Shown here piece after piece: positions 1,834 through 36,662 of a stretch of DNA of 64,000 nt; within the stretch, counting starts at the first letter, position 1, and each line of letters begins with the position of its first letter. The notes under the pieces were generated by a model, which did no database searches, had not been told where the DNA came from, and worked only from the letters and a program-made list of their open reading frames with translations. A program made the position numbers and the translations under genes. Source of the DNA: a bacterium (GTDB lineage Bacteria > 4484-113); contig JAGGTK010000099.1 in the NCBI GenBank assembly GCA_021163765.1, forward strand, positions 80,089-144,088. The letters run 5' to 3'.

Positions 1834-4800
1834 ATGCTCGTGAAACGACTATGGGTCTGGGTGCTCTTCCTCTCGCTGTTTGCGGTCTTTTCTGGCTGCG
1901 GCGGATCTTCGCATAAGAATCCAGGTGTCCTGCCATCTCTTTCCGGCCGGGACGCCGGCTCTGGCGAAGTGTCACAGCTCGATGATTACGGCTTCGGCAC
2001 CGAGGGATTCGTCCCCGGCGTGGACTACTACCCCGACCGCTTCGTTGTCGGCTTTAAGAACGGCGCAAAGGGCACCAGCGGTTCCCCGTCGCCGGTTGAT
2101 TACAACCCCAACTCAAAGCTGTATCGCAACACTGGCGTGGCATCACTGGCACGCGAGATCCGCGACCGTTACGCCGTGGCGCTCGACAAGGAAGCCTACG
2201 TTCGCGGGGTTAACTTCGCAAGCTACCAGACAGAGGGCGGCTCGTGCGCCAAAAGCGTAATGCAGCAAATTCAGTCGGACTACGCCGACGCAATCGAATA
2301 CATCGAATACGACGGGATTCGCTATCTGCAGTACGTTCCCAACGATCCCGATTATCCAGATAACCTCTGGGGCATGGTGAAGATTAACGCCGAGGACGCG
2401 TGGGACACCGAGAAAGGCGACAGCAACATAATGGTCTGTGTAATCGACACGGGCGTGCGCTACTCCGGCGATACCGTGGACGACGCGCCCGACCACGAGG
2501 ATCTAGCTGACAATTACCTGCACCCGCCTGACCACTGGCCGGACGAGCAATTCGATCTCTACGACGAGGATAATGTCCCTGAAGACGAATACGGCCACGG
2601 CTCACACTGCTCTGGCACCATCGGCGCGGTGGGCGACAACAGCAAGGGCGTCGTCGGCGTCAACCACGACATCACGATGGTGATGATCCGCGTGTTCGGG
2701 CCCAGCGGCGGCTGCCCCGATAGCTGGGTGGCGACAGCGATTGAGCTGGCTACGGAGATAGAATCCGATGTCATCAGCATGAGCCTTGCCGGTAGCTTCC
2801 CCAATCTGGCGACCAAGGAAGCCTGCGAGGACGCCTACGATGCCGGGATATTCATCGCTTCCGCAGCGGCAAACTCCTATACTGACGAGCCTTACTACCC
2901 CGGCTACTACGAAGTCTGCTGCTGCGTGGGTGCGACGACCTCATCGGACAACAGGGCCAGCTTCAGCAACTACGGGCAGTGGGTGGATATCGCCGCGCCA
3001 GGTGTTAGCATCAAGTCCTGCGGATATCTTTCAACCTCCTATTACATGTCTTGGAGCGGCACCAGCATGGCCACGCCCCACGTTGCAGGCGCAGCAGCCC
3101 TGCTGCTCAGCTATGACAGCACGTTGACCGTTGACGAGTTGCGTTCGGCCCTGGAAAGCACCGGCGCTGACCTGAGCGACTCCCAGTGGGGGAATCCGGA
3201 TATCAAGCGCCTTGATGTGGACGCGGCGCTGACATTTGTGGTGGACGATGAATTCGGCACGCCGCCCACCGTCAGTATTGACAGCCCCGACGGCACTTCT
3301 TCCGTCAGCGGCACCGTGACGATTGAAGCCAGCGCGTCGGACAGTGACGGCTCGATTCTGAAGGTGTTCTTCTACGCCGACGATGTCCAGATGGGAACTG
3401 ATGATACAGACCCATACACCTACGAATGGGACACAACTAAATACCTGAACAAGGCCTATACGCTGAAAGCCGTAGCGCTCGATAACCAGCATATGACCTC
3501 CGAGGATACGGTCTCGGTTACGGTGTCCAATACGGTCGAGACTCCGAATTACTTCATTGACTTTGAAAGCGGCTCCACGGATTGGTGGCACACCGACGAG
3601 AACGGCTCCGGCTACTGGCAGCTCGTGGACGATGACGGCGCCAGCGGAACGCACAGCTTCCACCAGGGCGGGGCGGGAGGCGGCAACTACGGTAATCGCG
3701 AGTTCGACCGCTTGTATTCGCCAGTGTTCGACCTATCAGCTCTCTCTGCCGTGCGCCTGAAGTTCAAGCACCACCGGGCTTTCGCCAGCGGGGATTATGG
3801 CTACGTTATCGTTCACGATGGGAGTTACGACTTCAATATCCTGGCGTGGTACGGCCCCGGCACGCAGTCGTCCTGGGCTGATGTAACGAAGAGCCTTAAC
3901 AGCTACATCGGCAAGTCAGTCCAGATAGTATTCCTTTTTGAATCCAATACTAGTGGTCAGGCGGCCGGCTGGTGGATTGACGACTTCGCAATTGAGAAGA
4001 AGACGCCCCCTTGCAGCATAGACATCACGTCACCAGGGGCCGACGCGGAGGTCAGCGGCACGGTGGATTTCGCCGCAGACGTGAGCGACGACATTGACGT
4101 CACGCTGGTGGAGATGTCCATCGACGATTCGCTGAAGGCGAGCTTCACCGACGACGGCCCCTACGAATACTCGTGGGTCACGACCGACTACCACGGCGGC
4201 CTGCACGACCTGAAGGTCTACGCGGAGGACGAATGGCCAACCTCCAGCGAGGAGAGCATCAGCGCCACGGTAAAGAACCACACCATCACCGGGGCTGACG
4301 TAACGTCGGGCATAGCCGGCACTGCCGTGACCATAGACGGCACCTACTTCATCGCTGACAGCGGCGATGCCTACAACGCTTCGACGGACAAAGTCTACTT
4401 CAGCGGAGCTTCCGGCTGGTGCGAAGCGGCGGTGAGTAGCTGGCAGAAGGAAGCAATCCAGGTGACCGTGCCCGGTGGCGCGGTGACCGGCCCGCTGATG
4501 GTGGATATAAACGGCGCGGAAGTTACATCCAGCTTCGATTTCACGATGCTTCCGCACCTTGACGCGCTCAATCCCGCCATCCAGATTGTTGGCGGTGACA
4601 TCACTATTGAGGGCACGGGCTTCGGAGCTTCGGCGAACGGGGACAGCGTCGTGGATATCGGCGGTCTCGAGGCGACCATTGTGTCCTGGGACACCAATGC
4701 GATTGAAGTTACTATCCCTTCAGGGGTCATCCAGTCAGACCTGACGGTGACCGTCACCTCGGGGACGAGCAACGCTTTAGTCTTTACACCGAAGCCGAAC

Positions 4801-5085
4801 ATCACGGGTCTTGACCCGGACCGAACCTGGCCGGGCAACGAGATAACGATTAACGGAACCAGTTTAGGAGATGAACAGGGCGATAGCGCGGTTACTTTCG
4901 CCGGTCCTGTCGAAGCCGCGCCGGAAGACATCGTTAGCTGGAGCGATACCGAGATTGTAGTTGTTCTGCCGGAGAGCTCCCTGCGGGGCGATGTTGTTGT
5001 AACGGTAAACGACGTTGACTCCGATGGCGAGTTCCTGATAGTAATACTGCCCCCGCCCAGCCTGGGTGGAGTGCAACAGTACTAA
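1834..5085 (+). CDS. Subtilisin-family (S8) serine protease lipoprotein with Ig-like, MAM/choice-of-anchor-like and 4x IPT/TIG domains
   Basis: ATG preceded by GAGGGCGGAA. Lipobox signal MLVKRLWVWVLFLSLFAVFSGC. I9-like propeptide (YYPDRFVVGF). Catalytic motifs VCVIDTGV (Asp codon 2445-2447), HGSHCSGT (His 2596-2598), SGTSMATPHVAG (Ser 3064-3066). These are followed by Ig-like domains, a beta-sandwich ending WWIDDFAIEK, four IPT/TIG repeats and the tail LPPPSLGGVQQY. Confidence 0.9.
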   Translation: MLVKRLWVWVLFLSLFAVFSGCGGSSHKNPGVLPSLSGRDAGSGEVSQLDDYGFGTEGFVPGVDYYPDRFVVGFKNGAKGTSGSPSPVDYNPNSKLYRNTGVASLAREIRDRYAVALDKEAYVRGVNFASYQTEGGSCAKSVMQQIQSDYADAIEYIEYDGIRYLQYVPNDPDYPDNLWGMVKINAEDAWDTEKGDSNIMVCVIDTGVRYSGDTVDDAPDHEDLADNYLHPPDHWPDEQFDLYDEDNVPEDEYGHGSHCSGTIGAVGDNSKGVVGVNHDITMVMIRVFGPSGGCPDSWVATAIELATEIESDVISMSLAGSFPNLATKEACEDAYDAGIFIASAAANSYTDEPYYPGYYEVCCCVGATTSSDNRASFSNYGQWVDIAAPGVSIKSCGYLSTSYYMSWSGTSMATPHVAGAAALLLSYDSTLTVDELRSALESTGADLSDSQWGNPDIKRLDVDAALTFVVDDEFGTPPTVSIDSPDGTSSVSGTVTIEASASDSDGSILKVFFYADDVQMGTDDTDPYTYEWDTTKYLNKAYTLKAVALDNQHMTSEDTVSVTVSNTVETPNYFIDFESGSTDWWHTDENGSGYWQLVDDDGASGTHSFHQGGAGGGNYGNREFDRLYSPVFDLSALSAVRLKFKHHRAFASGDYGYVIVHDGSYDFNILAWYGPGTQSSWADVTKSLNSYIGKSVQIVFLFESNTSGQAAGWWIDDFAIEKKTPPCSIDITSPGADAEVSGTVDFAADVSDDIDVTLVEMSIDDSLKASFTDDGPYEYSWVTTDYHGGLHDLKVYAEDEWPTSSEESISATVKNHTITGADVTSGIAGTAVTIDGTYFIADSGDAYNASTDKVYFSGASGWCEAAVSSWQKEAIQVTVPGGAVTGPLMVDINGAEVTSSFDFTMLPHLDALNPAIQIVGGDITIEGTGFGASANGDSVVDIGGLEATIVSWDTNAIEVTIPSGVIQSDLTVTVTSGTSNALVFTPKPNITGLDPDRTWPGNEITINGTSLGDEQGDSAVTFAGPVEAAPEDIVSWSDTEIVVVLPESSLRGDVVVTVNDVDSDGEFLIVILPPPSLGGVQQY
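4006..5082 (+). repeat. Copy A of a ~1.08 kb coding module (Ig-like + 4x IPT/TIG + C-terminal tail) shared with the C1 protease gene
   Basis: Colinear with 6770-7840 at protein level (roughly three quarters of residues identical by eye). There are runs of exact nucleotide identity, e.g. 36 nt at 4510-4545 = 7268-7303 (aacggcgcggaagttacatccagcttcgatttcacg). Confidence 0.85.
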
Positions 5086-5185: not shown

Positions 5186-5740
5186 ATGACTAATTCACGC
5201 AGGACTGTTCTAAACCGACCCGGAGGAACTTTCACACTGCAAGCCCTGAAGGTGCTGTTGGTGGTTGGCGCTTTGGGACTTGTTAGCTGCGGCGGGCATA
5301 GCAAGCATGCGCCCACTCTCGTTAATACCGTAGAACTCGCAGAAACTGCCAATTCAGAGCCGATGGAAGTGGCGGCCCAGGCCCAGGAGCAAGAGTATAC
5401 GCACTTGGTGAGAGTGACAATGAGGCCGCAGGAACCGCTGGAATCCGGGCCGGGCCTGTCTTTGCCGTCTCCCCTGGAGGCTTTTGGCCTCTTGCCCGAT
5501 GTTAAGGGGGGATCGACCAGCGCAGAGCGCCTGATGCGGATGGGGTCGTCCTATGAGGAAATCCTGCCACACAACAGGATTGCGCGAGATGGCGACTATC
5601 TTGTTTTCAATGCTCGACCTGGCAACGACAGGGCTGCTCTCTCCAGCGAGCTGTCGTTCGCCGCTTACCGCTTCTCTCTTGCGGGATATGATGGAAGCCA
5701 GACGATAGGGTTTGACTGGGGGCTTCCGCCAAGCGGATGA
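5186..5740 (+). CDS. Lipoprotein signal peptide + pro-region fragment, in frame with the downstream C1 peptidase and separated from it by one TGA
   Basis: ATG 5186 gives MTNSRRTVLNRPGGTFTLQALKVLLVVGALGLVSCGG (lipobox). AAGGATAGG lies upstream. The frame is the same as 5744-7843 and the junction reads CCA AGC GGA TGA GGC ATG. The ORF-track start at 5066 would overlap the upstream gene. Confidence 0.55.
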   Translation: MTNSRRTVLNRPGGTFTLQALKVLLVVGALGLVSCGGHSKHAPTLVNTVELAETANSEPMEVAAQAQEQEYTHLVRVTMRPQEPLESGPGLSLPSPLEAFGLLPDVKGGSTSAERLMRMGSSYEEILPHNRIARDGDYLVFNARPGNDRAALSSELSFAAYRFSLAGYDGSQTIGFDWGLPPSG

Positions 5741-5743
5741 GGC

Positions 5744-7843
5744 ATGGACAGGCCTGAGTTCCAGGTCGGCTTTGGAAATGTCTCAAGTGACACCTGGGAA
5801 TGGTACGAGGGGCCGCGCGACGACGTTCTGACGCTTGAGTCCTATGAGCCTTACACTGCGGCTAACGGCGATGTGCTGGCAGTGGTTGTGCTGGATGACA
5901 CAATCGAGTTCACGCTCAAGCAACTGGCTGTGGGTGAATACGAAATCCGCGCGCTGGGTGATGAGTGGTCTGAGAGTGACATTTCCGAACTTGATAAGGA
6001 ACGCTGGGCATCTTCGGCGGAAGGGGATGCACAGCGCCAGGCTTCGGATTTGCCATCGTCAGTTGACCTTACCAGCGGTTGCTCGCCGGTGAGGAACCAG
6101 GGGAGTATTGGCTCCTGCACCGCCTTCGCCGTAGGCCCCGGCGCGTATGATTACGAGCTGGGGAGCATCTACGGTTATTACGGCTGGGACTTCGACAATG
6201 ACTTCAACCTGTCCAGCCCGAAGTGGCTATACCGCAAAACCGGCACCGGCTGTGGAGGAAGCTCAGGCCGAACTACCTGGAAAGTGGTGGATTTCCTGAA
6301 GACGGACGGCACGTCTTCCGAAGAGAACTGCCCTTACACGAACGTGTGCGGAAGCGATTGCACAAGCGACGACGCATACGATGATGCAGAGCTTCTACAG
6401 ATCGACAGCTGGTCTTTCGTATTCCGGTGCTGGACTGAGGACGAGATAACTCCCATCAAAGCAGTGCTTGCCAATGAAGAGCGTGTCCTCGTGATGCGCA
6501 CGGACGTTGACAGCTCTATTTTTGATTACAAGGCTGGCGATGTTTGGAATTTCACTGGGCCCAGTATCGGCGGGCACGCAATGTGCATCGTTGGCTATGA
6601 CGATTCTAAAGAAGCGTTCAAAGTCCGCAATAGCTGGGGTGCTGACTGGGGCGATAACGGTTATCTGTGGATTGGCTACGAAACTTTTCTGGACTATGAC
6701 GGTTCATACATCTATTGCTGCAAGATGGTGGATTCCTACAGCGAAGATGTTCGCCAACGGTTCCTGAAACCGCCGTCTATTACCATCACAGCGCCTTCAG
6801 ACGGCGCCACGGTTTCGGGAACGGCAGACTTCACCGCGGATGTAACCGATAACACCGGAGTCGATCTTGTGGAAATGTACATTGACGGCGATATGGTGGC
6901 CGACTTCAGCGCTGAGCCCTACGAGTATTCCTGGGACACCACTGACTACCATGGAGGGGCGCATACGCTAAAAGTCTACGCAGAGGATGACACATCCATA
7001 TGGTATGAGAAACAGATAACTGTTTATGTTGAAAACCACACTGTCACGAGCGTCAGCCCCGGTTCCGGAATCACCGGAACGACGGTAACCATTAGCGGAA
7101 CATCCTTCTTGGCCGGAAGCGGTGACACTTACGATGATTCGACGGATAAAGTCTATTTCAGCGGGGATTCCGGCTGGAGCGTGGCGACGGTGACAGACTG
7201 GCAGGAAGAAGAGATAGAGGCGGTCGTCCCCGGCGGTGCGGTGACCGGCCCGCTGAAGGTGGATATCAACGGCGCGGAAGTTACATCCAGCTTCGATTTC
7301 ACGGTTCTGCCCCATATAGACGCGCTTAATCCTCCAGCTCAGGAGATAGGGGGCAATATAACCGTCGAGGGGACAGGCTTTGGGGTGTCCGCCAACGAGG
7401 ATAGCTCTGTAGACATTGGCGGCATTGAGCCGACTATCGTGTCCTGGGCAAACACTGAAGTCGAGATAACTATCCCGTCCGGTGTTACCAAATCGGACCT
7501 GACGGTTACTGTTACGTCTGGCACGAGCAACGCCGTTGTCTTTAAGCCCAAACCGAACATCACCGGGCTTGATCCGAGCCGCACGTGGCCGGGTAAAGAA
7601 ATTACGATAACGGGAATCAGCTTCGGTAACGAAGTGGGTGACAGCACGGTTACTTTCGCGGGGCCGGTTCAGGCTGGCCCGGAGGACATCGTGGGCTGGA
7701 GCGACTCGGAAATAGTAGTTGTTCTGCCGGAAGGCGCAAAGCGGGGCGACGTTGTGGTGACGGTAGACGGCGTCGATTCGGAAGGCGAGTTCCTGATAGT
7801 CATCCTGTCGCCGCCGGTTCTGGGCGGCGTGCAGCAGTATTGA
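5744..7843 (+). CDS. Papain-family (C1) cysteine protease fused to Ig-like + 4x IPT/TIG module; lacks its own signal peptide
   Basis: NQGSIGSCTAFAV (Gln/Cys nucleophile), GGHAMCIVGYDD (His), VRNSWGADWGDNGYLWIGY (Asn-Ser-Trp). C-terminal module ~75 percent identical to that of the S8 protease at 1834-5085. Tail LSPPVLGGVQQY. Confidence 0.85.
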   Translation: MDRPEFQVGFGNVSSDTWEWYEGPRDDVLTLESYEPYTAANGDVLAVVVLDDTIEFTLKQLAVGEYEIRALGDEWSESDISELDKERWASSAEGDAQRQASDLPSSVDLTSGCSPVRNQGSIGSCTAFAVGPGAYDYELGSIYGYYGWDFDNDFNLSSPKWLYRKTGTGCGGSSGRTTWKVVDFLKTDGTSSEENCPYTNVCGSDCTSDDAYDDAELLQIDSWSFVFRCWTEDEITPIKAVLANEERVLVMRTDVDSSIFDYKAGDVWNFTGPSIGGHAMCIVGYDDSKEAFKVRNSWGADWGDNGYLWIGYETFLDYDGSYIYCCKMVDSYSEDVRQRFLKPPSITITAPSDGATVSGTADFTADVTDNTGVDLVEMYIDGDMVADFSAEPYEYSWDTTDYHGGAHTLKVYAEDDTSIWYEKQITVYVENHTVTSVSPGSGITGTTVTISGTSFLAGSGDTYDDSTDKVYFSGDSGWSVATVTDWQEEEIEAVVPGGAVTGPLKVDINGAEVTSSFDFTVLPHIDALNPPAQEIGGNITVEGTGFGVSANEDSSVDIGGIEPTIVSWANTEVEITIPSGVTKSDLTVTVTSGTSNAVVFKPKPNITGLDPSRTWPGKEITITGISFGNEVGDSTVTFAGPVQAGPEDIVGWSDSEIVVVLPEGAKRGDVVVTVDGVDSEGEFLIVILSPPVLGGVQQY
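6770..7840 (+). repeat. Copy B of the Ig-like + 4x IPT/TIG + tail coding module
   Basis: See copy A (4006-5082). Same domain order and high similarity, strongest over roughly 7130-7840. Confidence 0.85.
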
Positions 7844-7856
7844 GCCTTCGAGCCGG

Positions 7857-8426
7857 CTAGTTGCGCCCCTTCAGCGTGAAAAGGGGCATCTTAAACGCGA
7901 GGTCGTCCGCTAATTGAAGGCCAATCACCGCCGAGACCTTCATGTTGAATAGCAGGTGCGCATTGTGTGTCTCGATGAGCATTTTGCGCGTGCCGTGTTC
8001 ACCGAACTTGTAATAGTTGAGCACCTCACGGGAGCTGGTCCCCAGGGTGACGCCTGTCTTTGTGCGGATATTCGGGAACTCGGTGGCGAACTTGCTCGCG
8101 AGGAAGTCTATGTTTGTATCGCTGTTGATTGAGATTATTATCACGTCCACCCGGTTGTCCTGGTTGACATCTCCGATGATGAAGCTGTAGTTGTTGTAGA
8201 CATCCCTGAACTCGAAATACCGGCTGTCGCGGGAAACGTTGTTGTCCGCTATGCGCTGGCCGAGCGATTCGGCTATTCTCTCTTCGACCTGCGAGTAGGG
8301 GCTCCCCAAAGGCGTGCCCAGCCCGAAACTTTCGTTTTTCAGGAGCTCCCTGTAAGGGTCGGGTTTCTGGCAGCCGAGCGCGGCGCACATTAATACCAGA
8401 ACCACTGCAATCGGGGCTGCTCTCAT
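7857..8426 (-). CDS. Hypothetical lipoprotein
   Basis: Signal MRAAPIAVVLVLMCAALGCQ with lipobox. SD GGAGGGG lies upstream of the ATG. No recognisable catalytic motif. Confidence 0.6.
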   Translation of the reverse strand: MRAAPIAVVLVLMCAALGCQKPDPYRELLKNESFGLGTPLGSPYSQVEERIAESLGQRIADNNVSRDSRYFEFRDVYNNYSFIIGDVNQDNRVDVIIISINSDTNIDFLASKFATEFPNIRTKTGVTLGTSSREVLNYYKFGEHGTRKMLIETHNAHLLFNMKVSAVIGLQLADDLAFKMPLFTLKGRN

Positions 8427-12129: not shown

Positions 12130-12205
12130 GCGGATGGCGGGCGGGCAAGTTCCCCGACTTGCGGAACGATGCAAGGCCTGTCCCGAAGGTATAATAATAC
12201 TGATA

Positions 12206-15200
12206 ATGGGTACGCCAAGGGGACAAGTGTCTCGCAGGATTGCTGCGCTTGCCATCGGGGCCTTTTCCGTGTTTATACTGGCGGTCGCGTGCGGCAAAAG
12301 GCAGGGCGCTATTCCACTCACTCCAAAGTTGTCCCCGACGCGCACAGCCGGGGTCGATGCGCAGCGGGATTATTACCCCGACAGGATAATCGTGAAGTTC
12401 GCGCGCGACGCCGCACCTCCAGGCGGCGCTGGCGCGGGAGGTGACAGCCTGCCGCCGTCGGTGCTATATCAGAACACGGCGCCTGCGCTCTTTGCGCGCT
12501 ATCTTGCAGAGCAGTATGCCCTGGACATCGAGCAGGAAGCTTATGTGCGGGAGGTCAACTGGGCATGTTTCTCGGTCGATTCCGCCGAACGGGCCTCGCA
12601 GCTCCTGGGAGAGCTTCCAGCGTCATACCCCAGGGAGATTGAGTACGCAGAGTACGACGGGCGCTTTGAGCTGGACTACGTCCCGAACGACCCATACTAT
12701 CCCGACAACCTGTGGGGGATTGAGAAGATAGGCGCCGAGGATGCGTGGGATACCGCAACGGGCAGCGGAATCAAGATAGCCGTAATCGACACAGGCATCC
12801 GTTACGATGGGAACTCCCCGGCTTCCGTGCCGGACCACGAAGACCTCAACGACAACGTGATGCATCCGCCGGACTACTGGCCGAACGAGAAACTCGACCT
12901 GGTGGATGATGACAACATCCCAAACGACGAAGCGGGCCATGGCACCCACGTTGCGGGAACAGCGGCGGCTGTGGGCGACAACGCGACCGGTGTCGTCGGA
13001 GTTGCGTTTGAAGCGGACATCATTCCCATAAAGATATTCTCCGCCGACGAGCTGCTTTACTACTCTCGCGCCATCCAGGCGGTCACACTGGCGACGGAAC
13101 TGGGCGCGGACGTGGTGAATATGAGCTTCGCCGGCAGCTGGCTCTCCAGAGCGCTCAGCGACGCCCTGACCGATGCCTACGACGAGGGCGTTCTGCTGGT
13201 GGCTGCGGCGGGCAACAAGGTTCTGACTAAACCGTGGTATCCGGCAGGCTACCAGGTGGTAATGGCGGTAGGCTCAACGGAAGGGCAAGACCACCGTTCC
13301 GATTTCAGCAACTACGGGCCTTGGCTGGACATAGCTGCGCCCGGCAGCGGCGTTAAGTCAACCTACTACTTCAACGCTGCTTCTTACTGGACGCTGAGCG
13401 GCACGAGCATGGCTGCCCCTCACGTGGCAGGCACGGGCGCGCTGTTGATGGAAGCGCATCCCGACCTTTCCGTTGGGGAGGTCCGCGCGATACTGGAAGG
13501 CTCGGGCGTGGACCTGCCAGACTCGGAGTGGGACAATACAACCATACGCAGGCTCGATGCCGGGGCTGCAATGAGCTTCAGCCTTGGCAGCGCTCCAACG
13601 GTCACCATCACCTCCCCGGATGACGGCTCTACCGTAGACGGTTTGGTCACCTATAGCGTGAACGTCTCTGACAGCGACGGAAGTGTGGTCAAGGTGTATT
13701 TCTACGTTGGCGATTACCTCCTGGCGATTGATACAACCGCACAGTTCTCGACGACGTGGGATACGGGCAAGTTTCCGAATACGGCCTACGAGTTGCGGGC
13801 TGTGGCATACGACAACCAGGCTCAGCGTACTGCGGCCACGATTACCGTTACGGTCTCCAATACTGCGCTGGCGCCCGATTACTTTACCGATTTCGAGAGC
13901 GGCATAAGCGGATGGTGGAACCTGGATGAGAGCGGGCCTACAAGCTGGCACCTGTCTACTGAGGAAAGCTACAGCCCGACACATTCGTTCAAGATGGGCG
14001 ACACGGGCGACGGCTCCTACGGCAACAGCGAGTACGACCTGCTGTTCTCCCCCGTCTTTGACCTTTCAGGTATCGAGCACGCGCGGGTGAAGTTCTACCA
14101 CCGCCACGTCTTTTCCGGTCCCTGGGATGCCGGCTACGTTACCGTCAACACCGGCGATGGCGAGTACCACGTTCTTGCGTCGTATACCTTCGGTCAGTAC
14201 GAGTGGAAGCTGGAAAACCTTCTGCTCGACGACTATCTTGGGAAGTCCATCCAGGTTGTTTTCCTGATGGAGTCCAACAACACGGTGAACAACGAAGGCT
14301 GGTATATCGACGACTTCCGCCTTGTGAAATCCACTGATCCGCCGACGGTCGCCCTGACCTCGCATCAGGATAACGATATTGTTAGCGGGACGATCACTGT
14401 AACGGCAACCGCCAGTGACGATGTCGGAATCAGCAAGGTAGAGCTTTACGTAAACGGCATACTCTCCGGCGCCGACACTATCCCTCCATACTCGTTTAGC
14501 TACAACACTCTTGAGCTTCACGGCGGCGATAACGTGTTTCGCGTTACTGCATATGACGAATTCCCTCTGACCGCGAGTGACGAGGTGAATCTCATCGTCC
14601 AGAATCACCAGGTAAACTCGTTCTGGCCGTTAAGCGCCACTGCTGGTTCGACGGTGGACATCAGCGGCAACAACTTTATCGCAGACGGCGACGATGCCTA
14701 TAATCCTGCCACGGATAAGGTGCGCTTCACGGGCGAGGAAGATCTGGTCGATGCTGAAGTCGGCAACTGGTACAAGAACAGCATTTCATGCACTGTGCCT
14801 GCGGGCGCTGTAATAGGGCCGGTTTACGTCGTGATCGGCAGCGCCTCTGTTGCTTCGAACGACGATTTCGCAATCAAGCCGCTGGTTGACAGCTTGGAGC
14901 CTGATGCTCAGGTTGTCGGCGAAAATATCCTAATTCACGGGAGTGGTTTCCTGGCCGAGCAGGGCAGCGGCTACGTCACATTCAACGGTCTCCAGGCGTC
15001 GAGTGTGGCCTCCTGGAGCACGCAGGCCATAGAGGTCGTTGTTCCGGGCGGAGTCACGGCAGGGCCGGTGAAGGTCAGCACGGAAGTGGGTGTAAGCAAC
15101 GGGGTCGAGTTTACTCCATTACCGCACATTACCATGCTCTCGTCCAGCCGGGCGTATGCCGGGAAGTTGCTGACGATATTCGGCACCAGCTTCGGCAGCG

Positions 15201-15409
15201 ACTCCAGTGCGGGTTCGGTTTGGTTCCACAATGGCGTTGAGGTGCCGGGCACGGATGCGATGTGGCAGTCCACGCAGATTGGCGTATTCGTGCCGGATGG
15301 CGCGGAAACCGGCGACCTCTACGTGACGGTGAATGGATGCGAGAGCAACAGAGCCTGGCTTACTATTACGCTTCCGCCGCCTCGTCTGGGGGGGCTGTAC
15401 CAGTACTGA
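12206..15409 (+). CDS. Subtilisin-family (S8) serine protease lipoprotein, paralog of 1834-5085 with the same architecture
   Basis: Start chosen at M25 (ATG 12206), which gives the lipoprotein signal MGTPRGQVSRRIAALAIGAFSVFILAVACG. YYPDRIIVKF propeptide. AVIDTGI, HGTHVAGTAAA, SGTSMAAPHVAG. Beta-sandwich ending WYIDDFRLVK, Ig-like domains, four IPT/TIG repeats, tail LPPPRLGGLYQY. Confidence 0.9.
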   Translation: MGTPRGQVSRRIAALAIGAFSVFILAVACGKRQGAIPLTPKLSPTRTAGVDAQRDYYPDRIIVKFARDAAPPGGAGAGGDSLPPSVLYQNTAPALFARYLAEQYALDIEQEAYVREVNWACFSVDSAERASQLLGELPASYPREIEYAEYDGRFELDYVPNDPYYPDNLWGIEKIGAEDAWDTATGSGIKIAVIDTGIRYDGNSPASVPDHEDLNDNVMHPPDYWPNEKLDLVDDDNIPNDEAGHGTHVAGTAAAVGDNATGVVGVAFEADIIPIKIFSADELLYYSRAIQAVTLATELGADVVNMSFAGSWLSRALSDALTDAYDEGVLLVAAAGNKVLTKPWYPAGYQVVMAVGSTEGQDHRSDFSNYGPWLDIAAPGSGVKSTYYFNAASYWTLSGTSMAAPHVAGTGALLMEAHPDLSVGEVRAILEGSGVDLPDSEWDNTTIRRLDAGAAMSFSLGSAPTVTITSPDDGSTVDGLVTYSVNVSDSDGSVVKVYFYVGDYLLAIDTTAQFSTTWDTGKFPNTAYELRAVAYDNQAQRTAATITVTVSNTALAPDYFTDFESGISGWWNLDESGPTSWHLSTEESYSPTHSFKMGDTGDGSYGNSEYDLLFSPVFDLSGIEHARVKFYHRHVFSGPWDAGYVTVNTGDGEYHVLASYTFGQYEWKLENLLLDDYLGKSIQVVFLMESNNTVNNEGWYIDDFRLVKSTDPPTVALTSHQDNDIVSGTITVTATASDDVGISKVELYVNGILSGADTIPPYSFSYNTLELHGGDNVFRVTAYDEFPLTASDEVNLIVQNHQVNSFWPLSATAGSTVDISGNNFIADGDDAYNPATDKVRFTGEEDLVDAEVGNWYKNSISCTVPAGAVIGPVYVVIGSASVASNDDFAIKPLVDSLEPDAQVVGENILIHGSGFLAEQGSGYVTFNGLQASSVASWSTQAIEVVVPGGVTAGPVKVSTEVGVSNGVEFTPLPHITMLSSSRAYAGKLLTIFGTSFGSDSSAGSVWFHNGVEVPGTDAMWQSTQIGVFVPDGAETGDLYVTVNGCESNRAWLTITLPPPRLGGLYQY

Positions 15410-15471: not shown

Positions 15472-17190
15472 ATGAGGAATCCAGGACTATATCTTGTGTT
15501 GCTGGCGTTTTTGCTGCTTACGGCCTGTGGGCGAGGGGCTTCCGGCGTTTCTGTGCAGAACGTTAATCCAGGCGCCAACCTTGCCGCGCCGCTCCTGAGC
15601 GGCCTGGAGCTAACCCGTGAGAAGTCGGTGTCCGGCCTGCCAACCGGTGTCATAGTGACCTGGGAGCGCGTGGATGACCCGCTTGCCATCGGCTATTACC
15701 TCTATCGTGACACACAGCACATCGAGACTGCTAATCCTGCGCTGCGGACGAACGGCGGTGACATGATAGATCAGCCGGGCTCCGGCACAACGGTAACCTT
15801 CTACGACGAGTTCTATCCGGTGGTGGGACAGACTTATTACTACCGGCTTTCCGTGGTGGACATCTACGACGAGGAAAGCGATCTCAGCAATGAGCTAGTC
15901 ATAGAGATTTCCGCTCAGGAGGTGACCGGCCTTAACCCGGCGTCTGGCTACTACGGTGACACGGTGACCATCAGCGGCACGGACTTCGGCATCCATAATG
16001 TGGATGACGACTATGTTTTCTTCCCCACGGATTCGTCCGAGAGGGTCGAGGCTGCAATCTTATCCTGGGAGGATACTGAGATTCAGTGCGTCGTCCCGGC
16101 AGGCGCGATTACCGGGCGCGTCCAGGTTGAGATCGCAAGCACCGTCGCGGAAAGCGATGAAGACTTCGTGATACTGAATCCGTTTCTCATCTCGGTGAGC
16201 CCCAAGTACGCTAGCTATAACGAGGAGATACGTATCCTGGGGGACAATCTCACCGACTCGCCCGGACCGGCTGACGGCGTGACTTTCCCGGGCGATGTAT
16301 TCATCTCGTACGGCGCGGGATTCTTCGTTTCCTGGTCGGACACCGAAATAATCATGCGCGTTCCGCCAGCGGTAGGTGCGGACGGCGAGATAACTGCCAG
16401 AGTGGGCGGTGAAGACACGAACGGAGTAGCCTTTTCGGTGCGCCCCGCTATTGAGACGGTGACGCCGCGGAAGCTGGTCCCGGGTTCCCCCACAAAGGTC
16501 TCAGTCGTCGGCCTGAATCTGGGTAACATCCTTGTCAGCGAGCTATATATCGTGGACGCTTCCGACGTAGACCCCGTTCCGTCGGTCAAAGTGGACGATT
16601 CCTACATCGTTTCCTGGGATAACAACGAGGTAGTATTCCGCGTGCCCTTTGAGGAATACGGCGAACTCCCGGCTCTCAGGGTTAAGCGCGGGCCATACTG
16701 GAGCGACAGTTACTCTGTAATCATGCTTGAGCCCCTCCAGATTACCTTTCTGTTTCCCGCCCAGCATTCGACATTGGAGGAGCCTACAACAATCGCGGTC
16801 ACATCGATGATTGACGTCACCCGCGTGGAGTTCTATCTGGGATCAGCGACCTGGCCGCTGTACATTGATGCTGAAGGCCCGGATTATTCACTTGTGATCG
16901 ACCCGCAGGATTACACTAACGGGAGCTACTACTTAAAGGCTAAAGCGTACCGAGGCGCTGAGAGAGCGTACGCATTTCTCCTTTTTGACATACTGTCGCT
17001 CCCCGGGGATACAAACGGCGATGGCGTTGTGGACGATGCCGATGTTGAGAAGCTCAGGTTGCATCTCGGTCTGACGTCCGAAGACGCGCTCTATCACCGC
17101 TACCTTGACCCCAACGACGACGGCCAGATAGACGAGCGGGATGTCAGCTTTATCGGTTACCACTATACAGGCGCCTTTGAGGTACCGTAG
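15472..17190 (+). CDS. Non-catalytic lipoprotein: FN3-like + IPT/TIG repeats + Ig-like domain + C-terminal dockerin-type module
   Basis: Signal MRNPGLYLVLLAFLLLTACG. FN3-like YYLYRD...TYYYRLSVVDIYDEESDLS. IPT/TIG-like repeats (VTGLNPASGYYGDTVTISGTDFG...). Dockerin-like pair GDTNGDGVVDDADVEKL ... DPNDDGQIDERDVSFI. Confidence 0.75.
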   Translation: MRNPGLYLVLLAFLLLTACGRGASGVSVQNVNPGANLAAPLLSGLELTREKSVSGLPTGVIVTWERVDDPLAIGYYLYRDTQHIETANPALRTNGGDMIDQPGSGTTVTFYDEFYPVVGQTYYYRLSVVDIYDEESDLSNELVIEISAQEVTGLNPASGYYGDTVTISGTDFGIHNVDDDYVFFPTDSSERVEAAILSWEDTEIQCVVPAGAITGRVQVEIASTVAESDEDFVILNPFLISVSPKYASYNEEIRILGDNLTDSPGPADGVTFPGDVFISYGAGFFVSWSDTEIIMRVPPAVGADGEITARVGGEDTNGVAFSVRPAIETVTPRKLVPGSPTKVSVVGLNLGNILVSELYIVDASDVDPVPSVKVDDSYIVSWDNNEVVFRVPFEEYGELPALRVKRGPYWSDSYSVIMLEPLQITFLFPAQHSTLEEPTTIAVTSMIDVTRVEFYLGSATWPLYIDAEGPDYSLVIDPQDYTNGSYYLKAKAYRGAERAYAFLLFDILSLPGDTNGDGVVDDADVEKLRLHLGLTSEDALYHRYLDPNDDGQIDERDVSFIGYHYTGAFEVP

Positions 17191-35155: not shown

Positions 35156-36475
35156 TTAGAACTTGAATTTGAAGTCGAACTGCAAGCGTTTGTAGCTCTT
35201 GCCACCAGCCAGACCGGCATCGTTCAGGAAGTAAGTGAGACCGGCGCTCGTGTTTTTCGTAAGCGCAACACCCAGGCCGAGCACGTGGCCTTTGCCGTCG
35301 GTGCCACCGCCAATGAAATCGGAGTCGCAGAAAGCACCGAGGACAGCGTCGGCTTCAACGCGGCGGTAGTTGTATTTGAACTCCCACTCGCCAGGATTCT
35401 TTGCCTTGCCCAGGTTCGCGCCGACCAGCCAGCCTTTATCATCGGTATCCGCATCGGTGTTGGTCACGTAGTCTCCGTAAACGGTGAACGGCGTGTTTCC
35501 CAGTTTTGTGGTTACCTCAGCAAAAGCCTCAAACTCCCTGAAGCCAGTGGTGTAAGTGATGTCACCGGTGTTCGGATCTGTGTTGACACTGTTGCCGAAA
35601 CTGTCGGTGGCATCGACAAGCGGCGTCTGGCCTTCTACGTTGGTGAACGCATAGTAGCCTACGCCCACAGTGGCCTTTGTATTGCTGCCACCTTTCAGGT
35701 GCAGGCCGGTCTGTGCTCCGAGTATCCGCGCATCCGCAGCGGCCTTTCGCTCGTCTGCCCAGAAGTGTGCCACGTTCAGGAACGGTTTCGTATCGCCGGA
35801 ACCTTCGAACCTCACGGCCAGACCTTCGGGATTCATATCCCCGTCCCAGAGTAACTGGCTCTTGGCGGGCTTGAAGAAAGGATTGGACATCTTGCCGCCA
35901 TAGACAGTCATGTTCTCGCTTGGGTGCCAGTCGAAGTAAGCGCGGTCAAGCCAGATGCTCTTGCTGGAAAACGCGCCGTCGAGTGTCTGGTTTGTGGATA
36001 CTGGATCCGCTGAACCTGATGCCAGGCGGACTTTGATGTCCACCTGGTCATTCACCTTACCGGTCAGCCCCAGGCGTGCACGAACACGTTCGCGGTTGCG
36101 GCTCTTTTTCCCCGTCTTGTTGATGTGTTCGTAGCGATAGCGCAAGTCGCCGCTCACCTTCACTTTCGGGACCCAGGACGGGAGCGGCTCCTGTTCCTTC
36201 AGCTTGTCCACCTTCTCAGTATTCGCGCTCAATCCACCTTCAACCGCGACCAGCCTTTCAGAAAGCTCCTCGATTTGAGACTGCTGCTCCTCAATGATTT
36301 TCATCAGGTCGGCTATGTCGAGACCGGCGTAGCTCTCGTCCGGGCCTTCGGTCGCCTCTTGAACAACAACCGCCTCGGTCGTATCGGAGTCGTCCGTTGA
36401 GGATGCTTCGTCAGCCCAGGCAATGACGGAAAGCGCTAGAAGCGCGGACAATGCGATTACGAGTGCTTTTTTCAT
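35156..36475 (-). CDS. Outer-membrane beta-barrel porin with N-terminal acidic/coiled-coil region; first gene of the pst operon (likely phosphate-related porin)
   Basis: Start ATG 36475 with GGAGG SD. Signal MKKALVIALSALLALSVIAWA. Coiled coil IEEQQSQIEELSERL. Alternating beta-strand pattern and C-terminal LQFDFKFKF (terminal Phe). Confidence 0.65.
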   Translation of the reverse strand: MKKALVIALSALLALSVIAWADEASSTDDSDTTEAVVVQEATEGPDESYAGLDIADLMKIIEEQQSQIEELSERLVAVEGGLSANTEKVDKLKEQEPLPSWVPKVKVSGDLRYRYEHINKTGKKSRNRERVRARLGLTGKVNDQVDIKVRLASGSADPVSTNQTLDGAFSSKSIWLDRAYFDWHPSENMTVYGGKMSNPFFKPAKSQLLWDGDMNPEGLAVRFEGSGDTKPFLNVAHFWADERKAAADARILGAQTGLHLKGGSNTKATVGVGYYAFTNVEGQTPLVDATDSFGNSVNTDPNTGDITYTTGFREFEAFAEVTTKLGNTPFTVYGDYVTNTDADTDDKGWLVGANLGKAKNPGEWEFKYNYRRVEADAVLGAFCDSDFIGGGTDGKGHVLGLGVALTKNTSAGLTYFLNDAGLAGGKSYKRLQFDFKFKF

Positions 36476-36662
36476 GAATCCTCCTGTGACTGTATGTTCA
36501 GTGAGGCATCGGACTGAAATGTATAAATCCTCCATGGCAGCCCGCTCGGTAGTTGGCCGGATAAGTTGACGCGAGTCTCTTAGCGAAGAAGACTTGGCGA
36601 GCCTTCATGCGGTATCTACGTGAACGTCGTCCGATTCTCACGGGTTCAAGCTATCCGGACTC

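Follow-up and report, generated by a model that had tools for sequence, protein, structure and literature searches.

The 64,000-nucleotide stretch analyzed here, positions 80,089 to 144,088 of contig JAGGTK010000099.1 (assembly GCA_021163765.1) and referred to below as the window, encodes three proteases that share a 12-residue C-terminal tail. Two of them, S8-A and S8-B, have an S8 domain, and the third is a papain-like (C1) protease. Translation of 5047-5085, 7805-7843, and 15371-15409 placed the tail at the C-terminal end of all three open reading frames (ORFs), exactly where the original prediction, made from the DNA letters alone, had located it (Table 1). In S8-A the terminal IPT/TIG domain and the tail make up a C-terminal cassette of ca. 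95 amino acids. The downstream C1 ORF (5744-7843) encodes 699 amino acids in the Pfam domain order C1, Big_7, 3xTIG, and tail. S8-A probably begins with a lipoprotein signal (VFSGC, read by eye), and the true start of S8-B probably lies about 31 codons downstream of the ORF start at 12134. The tail was absent from all other ORFs of the window, including the dockerin lipoprotein gene that follows S8-B, as had been predicted. The back-translated tail pattern matched three times in the window and not once in 100 shuffles.

Within the window alone, the tail could pass as part of a duplicated module, because S8-A, C1, and S8-B share a whole Big_7 + 3xTIG module of ca. 350 amino acids (identity, 71% and 41%) and because the tails of S8-A and S8-B, identical at 8 of 12 positions, are only marginally above the module average (binomial estimate, p about 0.07). 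The argument for special conservation of the tail rests on comparison beyond the window.

Table 1. Features of the window and of related loci, and composition of the tail by position (numbered backward from the C-terminal residue; counts are for 22 distinct tails)
Feature	Position	Strand	Description or basis
S8-A gene, 1083 aa	1834..5085	+	S8 domain, Big_7, MAM-like domain, Big_7, 3xTIG, tail
Terminal IPT/TIG domain of S8-A	4795..5046	+	Pfam TIG 988-1062; AlphaFold2 pLDDT >90
Tail of S8-A protease, LPPPSLGGVQQY	5047..5082	+	translation; stop codon 5083-5085
C1 protease gene	5186..7843	+	in-frame TGA 5738-5740 between an upstream lipoprotein-signal ORF and the downstream ORF 5744-7843
Terminal IPT/TIG domain of C1 protease	7553..7804	+	Pfam; module comparison
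Tail of C1 (papain-like) protease, LSPPVLGGVQQY	7805..7840	+	translation
S8-B gene, 1091 aa	12134..15409	+	S8 domain, Big_7, MAM-like domain, Big_7, 3xTIG, tail
Terminal IPT/TIG domain of S8-B	15119..15370	+	Pfam; module comparison
Tail of S8-B protease, LPPPRLGGLYQY	15371..15406	+	translation
FN3-like/TIG lipoprotein, ends in Big_7 + type I dockerin	15472..17190	+	Pfam; downstream neighbor of S8-B
Protease + FN3-TIG pair loci	window 12134-15409 + 15472-17190; L068 7677-12554; L072 6588-11512; L073 6430-13330		
Small cohesin-like lipoprotein	L030:4287-4928; L013 about 7676-8000 (minus strand); L072:6031-6591; L073:5846-6433		
Tail residue	-12		L, 22/22
Tail residue	-11		P, A, G, or S
Tail residue	-10		P, 19/22
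Tail residue	-9		P, 22/22
Tail residue	-8		free
Tail residue	-7		L or I, 22/22
Tail residues	-6, -5		G/D-rich
Tail residue	-4		mostly hydrophobic
Tail residue	-3		free; most variable
Tail residue	-2		Q, 21/22 (K in one)
Tail residue	-1		Y 10, L 5, F 3, I 2, K 1, R 1

The wider comparison relied on DNA-pattern scans and a full HMMER search in place of a word-indexed protein search, which, queried with the last 97 amino acids, returned two fragments only and was too insensitive. The pattern CCNCCNNNNYTNGGNGGNNTNNNNCARTAYTRR was run against 185,579 species-representative genomes (596 Gb) and matched 21 loci. Nine matches close long ORFs with a terminal TIG domain and come from six metagenome-assembled genomes (MAGs) labeled Planctomycetales, PVC, or 'bacterium', 4484_113 among them. 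A looser pattern yielded 12 more long-ORF matches in a metagenome collection, every one a protease with the TIG domain and the tail. The other 13 genome-scan loci were chance matches (ORFs of <100 codons, or matches ending in TGG [Trp] rather than a stop codon), as were the other 32 metagenome loci. Among the long-ORF matches of both scans, the tail was not found on any protein lacking a terminal TIG domain. The distinct tail variants number 37; all are 12-residue protein ends that follow a terminal IPT/TIG domain, and none is an internal segment. Thus, the tail is neither restricted to the three paralogues of the window nor variable in its placement. The carrier MAGs include JAUWGS01, JAOZQG01, MVCR01, CAZKNJ01, CAVVLL01, and JBBIJQ01, besides the contigs behind L068, L072, and L073. 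The window is syntenic with one tail-bearing MAG at 83.6% nucleotide identity and with the others at 65-78%; the names of the homologue clusters were '[bacterium]' plus one 'Candidatus Riflebacteria' label.

The carriers are diverse. S8 representatives less than 50% identical, recovered in the HMMER search with the two S8 sequences as queries, keep the tail as LPPPVLAGLSQY, LPPPLLEGVGQY, LPPPEIVDAGQL, LPPPEITGMGQL, LPPPGLGNLTQK, LPNPNLGDLDQL, and LGPPVLDGLEQR. An M6-like protein of 1,092-1,097 amino acids with an HEYGH zinc motif, MAM-like domains, Big_7, and a single TIG domain ends in LPPPTLGG[LV]TQY; its distant relatives match Pfam Peptidase_M6. As judged from these domain assignments, the tail is present on three mechanistic classes of protease: serine (S8), cysteine (C1), and metallo (M6-like). 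Orthologues of the FN3-TIG lipoprotein that adjoins S8-B (in L068, L072, L073, P0178-P0184, P0190, and P0191) have no dockerin and end instead in tails such as LSAPDLTKAGQL, LAPP[WN]LDD..Q[YF], LPPPNLLDGEQF, and LPPPNLGGAGQI. This lipoprotein is not a protease, and therefore the tail is not protease-specific. The suggestion that it is specific to one protease family fails on this lipoprotein and on the M6-like protease alike.

The consensus of the 22 of 37 distinct tails that were found without the tail pattern as bait was L-[PAGS]-P-P-x-[LI]-[GD-rich]-[GD-rich]-hydrophobic-x-Q-(Y/L/F/I/K/R)-COOH. The distance from L-12 to the carboxylate was 12 in every tail. The last residue was aromatic in 13/22 and hydrophobic or aromatic in 20/22. 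The Gly-Gly pair and terminal Tyr that the original prediction had stressed are not general, because positions -6 and -5 are only G/D-rich and the last residue can be Y, L, F, I, K, or R. The Gly-Gly pair and the terminal aromatic residue are lineage-specific details, and the motif is better marked by its fixed register and by Q-2, which is nearly invariant.

The tail stands out from the domain to which it is attached. In an alignment of TIG2-TIG3-tail from ten sequences, 4 of the 11 invariant columns are in the tail, and among 21 terminal TIG + tail sequences, a set biased by its discovery route, the tail was the 12-column block of lowest entropy (0.65 versus 1.25 bits). Conservation is at the level of the peptide. 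The codon differences quoted in the original prediction are real, and the invariant tail residues use two to four synonymous codons each over 22 distinct DNA copies. The stop codon after the tail varies as well (TAA, TAG, or TGA). Because synonymous codons and stop codons vary, selection acts on the peptide and not on the DNA. These comparisons indicate that the tail is a real and newly delineated feature, wider in its carriers and lineages and narrower in its invariant core than first thought. A separate observation is that the middle proline (-10) is encoded by CCG in 21/22 DNA copies (for example, window 5053-5055), versus three or four different codons for the flanking prolines. This bias could reflect codon-specific translation kinetics or chance.

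In AlphaFold2 models of both the isolated module and full-length S8-A, the TIG domains had a predicted local distance difference test (pLDDT) score of >90 and the tail was coil. The last ten residues of the module model had a mean pLDDT of 56, with the last three <50, and residues 1075-1083 of full-length S8-A were also <50. The segment directly before the S8-A tail is a predicted beta strand (E173-177 of the module model), as had been anticipated. With 12 residues, four or five near-invariant positions, and a predicted coil of pLDDT <60 beside domains >90, the tail has the features of a short linear motif in a disordered terminus, with the caution that the alignments behind the models were shallow (10 and 13 sequences). 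The models did not support docking of the tail on its own TIG domain or on the S8 catalytic domain. Many TIG-terminated proteins in the HMMER match list stop right after the G strand ('...FTVLP'), and therefore the tail is not needed for the TIG fold. A sequence search of the PDB returned generic TIG domains only (CGTase domain D, MET, and the Deinococcus radiodurans secretin belt protein DR_1364, 8CO1, PMC10828601) and no comparable tail.

Domain and tail tend to travel together. When terminal TIG domains were queried without their tails, the best matches were mostly the terminal TIG domains of further tail proteins, also from different families; the L072 M6 protein is among the exceptions. 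For example, the terminal TIG of the P0152 S8 protein matched that of the L073 M6 protein at 53%, and that of the window C1 protease matched the L072 lipoprotein and L072 M6 protein. Such cross-family matches suggest that TIG + tail tends to act as a cassette that can be transferred between proteins. In each genome, S8-A and C1 co-vary in their C-terminal modules: both have EFLIVIL in the window (4042-5082 and 6800-7840), and both have AWLLLVL in L004 (3675-6974 and 930-3029). This co-variation indicates gene conversion between the adjacent S8-A and C1 genes.

The tail also trades places with a known docking module. Close S8 homologues P0055, P0070, P0081, and P0114 have the same N-terminal architecture and a dockerin-type end, which Pfam confirmed for P0055. 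The MAG that encodes P0055 also contains tail loci L006 and L011, so both endings occur in one genome. Among FN3-TIG lipoprotein clusters, approximately 30 end in a dockerin versus at least 9 in the tail, and in L073 a tail paralogue and a dockerin paralogue adjoin each other. The FN3-TIG lipoprotein is a conserved neighbor of tail-bearing proteases even in distant lineages. The operon-like pair of a tail protease (S8 or M6) and this lipoprotein is kept across lineages at ca. 33% identity, and a SpoIID gene is located near the pair in the window and in the P0152-encoding contig.

A second conserved pair involves the M6-tail gene. Directly upstream of it in L030, L013 (the window lineage), L072, and L073 is a gene for a small lipoprotein of 186-213 amino acids. 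Its domain is weakly cohesin-like: the Pfam Cohesin score was 24.8 bits in L073, against a gathering score of 24.1, and a subthreshold 17.5 bits was obtained in L072. A 4-nucleotide overlap joins the two genes in L030, and the pair is kept between distant lineages at about 30% identity. The small lipoprotein is a candidate receptor for the dockerin or the tail. In ten inspected loci, neither a PDZ protein nor an S41 peptidase, a sortase, or a secretin was encoded beside the tail genes, and none of the sortase, secretin, or PDZ partners initially proposed was encountered there.

Our preferred, if tentative, explanation is that the TIG stalk displays the tail as a short linear motif for docking or retention, functionally parallel to a dockerin. 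This explanation builds on the conservation of the tail, its fixed C-terminal register, selection on the peptide, predicted flexibility, occurrence on four protein families, and exchange with the dockerin. From these we infer that there would be binding to a partner, a particular partner, and a role in retention, and we take the carriers other than the M6 protein to be lipoproteins. By eye, the signal peptides of the S8, C1, and FN3-TIG proteins are lipobox-like and that of the M6 protein is ordinary. In this explanation a cassette of ca. 95 residues, the last IPT/TIG domain plus tail, has been shuffled in a set of uncultivated, probably diderm, bacteria onto exported proteases of the S8, C1, and M6 types as well as onto the FN3-TIG lipoprotein. 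A rigid Pro-rich spacer may present a seven-residue peptide with a free carboxylate to a cell-surface receptor, and binding would keep the enzyme cell-associated or within a multi-enzyme assembly. A C-terminal retention device would be useful for the S8 enzymes because their propeptide is N-terminal and its removal would part the mature enzyme from its N-terminal lipid anchor. The tail would then do, in minimal form, what Big_7 + dockerin does at the same place in the orthologues.

A bolder version, which we regard as doubtful, is that a common surface receptor recruits the S8, C1, and M6 proteases and the accessory lipoprotein through the 12-residue free-carboxylate peptide. Several proteases would thereby be assembled on the cell, in a previously undescribed minimal docking system that degrades protein as the cellulosome degrades cellulose and that works alongside cohesin-dockerin in the same uncultivated bacteria. 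The receptor of such an assembly could be the small cohesin-like lipoprotein, which is apparently translationally coupled to the M6 gene.

Several points weigh against a docking role. Inspection of the gene neighborhoods established no receptor. Approximately four or five tail carriers were seen per genome, in part as a result of gene conversion, and because carriers per genome are few and the S8-A and C1 modules co-vary, the independent evidence is less than the raw counts. The exchange with the dockerin demonstrates that the position tolerates different ends, not that those ends are equivalent in function. Alignments for AlphaFold2 were shallow and low pLDDT at termini is common, which makes 'flexible' weak evidence. 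Furthermore, the tail is always preceded by a TIG domain, so that a purely intramolecular role is possible, as is a role for the TIG + tail cassette as the functional unit.

The intramolecular possibility can be stated as a structural cap: the Pro-rich end of the last TIG domain would shield the edge of the sandwich, or guard against the cell's own exoproteases, without any partner. The invariable attachment to a TIG domain and the joint movement of domain and tail as a cassette are what a cap would predict, and PPP runs are intrinsically resistant to proteases. The P-x-hydrophobic-x-x-hydrophobic spacing, found in 19/21 tails, is the same as in the linker plus A-strand where one internal TIG domain joins the next. 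The junction between TIG2 and TIG3 can be aligned well with the tail by eye (VFTPKPNITGLDPD against VILPPPSLGGVQQY), and in sliding BLOSUM comparisons this junction was the best or second-best ungapped match to the tail within S8-A, P0004, and P0013, with mixed ranks. However, when a position-specific scoring matrix (PSSM) was built from 25 internal TIG junctions and the tails were compared at the free positions with control 14-mers sharing the same anchors, the tails scored no higher than the controls (Mann-Whitney p = 0.20). With such mixed ranks and this result, an origin of the tail as a truncated or orphan TIG linker and A-strand is not claimed; the tail has a signature of its own. A cap also has difficulty with the tail being left unpacked on the domain by AlphaFold2, with the many TIG-terminated proteins that have no extension, and with the near-invariant Q-2 and its exact distance to the carboxylate. 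We consider a cap rather unlikely.

A true secretion or sorting signal is unlikely too. In that case an outer-membrane translocon or a processing enzyme would recognize TIG + tail, much as the C-terminal domain (CTD) of type IX secretion system (T9SS) cargo is recognized, for export or surface attachment. One Ig-like cassette of ca. 95 amino acids is common to unrelated catalytic domains, all with Sec or lipoprotein signals, and the more distant HMMER matches are giant proteins whose ends look T9SS-CTD-like by eye. The organism of the window is probably diderm, as suggested by a Porin_5 outer-membrane protein (35159-36535, minus strand) that ends in FDFKFKF, an ordinary beta-signal unlike the tail. 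However, an NCBIfam scan of the full proteins and of their last 100 amino acids gave no match to a T9SS, PEP-CTERM, LPXTG, or GlyGly model at E <= 1, and no translocon or peptidase candidate was conserved beside the tail genes in the inspected loci. Carriers are few per genome, and the alternative ending, the dockerin, is a docking module rather than an export signal. Of the original prediction of a sorting or recognition signal, the conserved C-terminal tail stands; a sorting signal has no more in its favor than a docking tag or a structural cap has.

A role as product-like ligand in the S8 active site, whereby hydrophobic-x-Q-Y-COOH would mimic the end of the cleaved propeptide and tether or transiently inhibit the subtilases, is very improbable for the tail: the predicted S8-A propeptide junction (...RYLQY|VPNDP) ends in QY like the tail, Y or W precedes VPNDP or APNDP in S8-A, S8-B, P0004, P0005, P0013, and P0057 (both by eye), and a hydrophobic P4 with an aromatic P1 is the classical preference of subtilisin BPN', but the cleavage site itself is a prediction, AlphaFold2 keeps the tail out of the catalytic cleft, the tail is also on C1 and M6 proteases and a nonenzyme lipoprotein, and terminal K, R, L, or I is not accompanied by a matching change at the propeptide junction.

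If the tail does serve in docking or retention, it would rank with the smallest known tags of this kind, with no transmembrane segment, Ca-binding module, or dedicated domain. It would show how a poorly known bacterial group organizes extracellular proteolysis, which bears on protein turnover in sediments and the subsurface, and a 12-residue tag with a defined receptor would be a useful handle for protein engineering. Should the tail turn out to be a structural cap and nothing else, the result would be a modest note on domain architecture.

Two further observations concern the C1 protease gene. The in-frame TGA at 5738-5740 (context, 5186-5800) splits the gene into two ORFs in the same frame, and the upstream ORF of 184 codons is the only source of a signal peptide for the protease. 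The TGA and its peptide context, FDWGLPPSG*G.DRPEFQVGFGN, are kept in ten loci (window, L001, L004, L011, L019, L043, L046, L051, L053, and L059), and conservation is of the coding type on both sides. The second codon after the TGA is ATG, GTG, GTT, ATT, or GCG, and because it varies no start codon is conserved for the downstream ORF. In the protein database, each of the nine homologue clusters ends at the TGA codon, and no homologue there has a sense codon at this position. Third positions are variable in 1/7 of codons +3 to +9, versus 13/20 upstream and 18/29 downstream, and codons +3 to +9 form a hairpin (GGCCUG-AGUUC-CAGGUC) that starts 13 nucleotides after the UGA. These features make the UGA a candidate for recoding, as selenocysteine or by programmed read-through, in a secreted protease. 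For the UGA, Rfam gave no selenocysteine insertion sequence (SECIS) match, RNAalifold found no covariation, and the 64-kb window has no selenocysteine tRNA; TGA is also used as an ordinary stop codon by the same genes.

The other observation is a gene convergent to the C1 gene (7857-8426, minus strand), which encodes a probable lipoprotein of 189 amino acids with no Pfam match. It is kept in place in L004, L011, L019, L041, L045, L049, and L059 at 41-99% identity. Its product could be an inhibitor, chaperone, or partner of the C1 protease.

The tail resembles several known C-terminal systems; of these, none of the tripartite sortase- or exosortase-type signals, the T9SS CTD, the OMP beta-signal, and the type I dockerin fits it. 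No description of its motif was found in Pfam, in NCBIfam, or in a single literature search on the lineage name 4484-113, which gave no biology for that lineage, and a Pfam scan returned no known sorting domain and called the terminal domain TIG. Like LPXTG, PEP-CTERM, and GlyGly-CTERM signals, the tail is a short Pro/Gly signature near the C terminus of lineage-restricted exported proteins. Unlike them, it has no hydrophobic transmembrane helix or basic cluster, and the protein ends 12 residues after the last strand; as originally proposed, the tail has neither a transmembrane helix nor a domain of its own, and no sorting-signal model of Pfam or NCBIfam matches it.

The cassette is similar to the T9SS CTD in that an Ig-like beta-sandwich of about 80-100 amino acids forms the end of secreted proteases or adhesins and is common to unrelated catalytic domains. 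However, the most conserved part here is the flexible peptide after the domain, not the domain. Neither the type A nor the type B CTD model matched, the terminal domain is Pfam TIG, and no T9SS genes (PorV, SprA, PorU, and others) were seen in the 64-kb window or in the 8- to 20-kb loci.

Outer-membrane protein (OMP) beta-signals and C-terminal PDZ ligands, such as the Y-x-F porin ends sensed by DegS, also have a free C terminus and a last residue that is usually hydrophobic or aromatic. The tail differs in having no barrel domain, no -1/-3/-5 alternation of hydrophobic residues (G/D occupies -5, and variable, polar residues occupy -3), and a near-invariant Q at -2, and its aromatic ending is limited to 13/22. 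By PDZ-ligand criteria, P0 is hydrophobic in 20/22, P-2 (position -3) is the most variable position, the near-invariant Q is at P-1, and no PDZ protein was seen nearby. The suggested analogy to these endings is therefore weak, the near-invariant residues being L-12, P-9, and Q-2.

The gene arrangement recalls dentilisin, the lipoprotein subtilase PrtP with its accessory lipoproteins, in that a lipoprotein S8 gene is beside accessory lipoprotein genes. The conserved pairs of S8-B with the FN3-TIG lipoprotein and of the cohesin-like lipoprotein with the M6 protein resemble this arrangement. Dentilisin has no TIG stalk or tail, and the S8 proteins are not members of its family (NCBIfam PrtP match, 122-124 bits; cutoff, 300).

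The type I dockerin, at about 60 residues, is considerably longer than the 12-residue tail and has duplicated Ca-binding D-x-N-x-D-G loops that the tail lacks; Dockerin_1 (PF00404) did not match the tail proteins but did match the neighboring lipoprotein and P0055. Nevertheless, both are found at the extreme C terminus of exported enzymes after Ig-like spacers, and in the S8 and FN3-TIG orthologues they occupy the same position.

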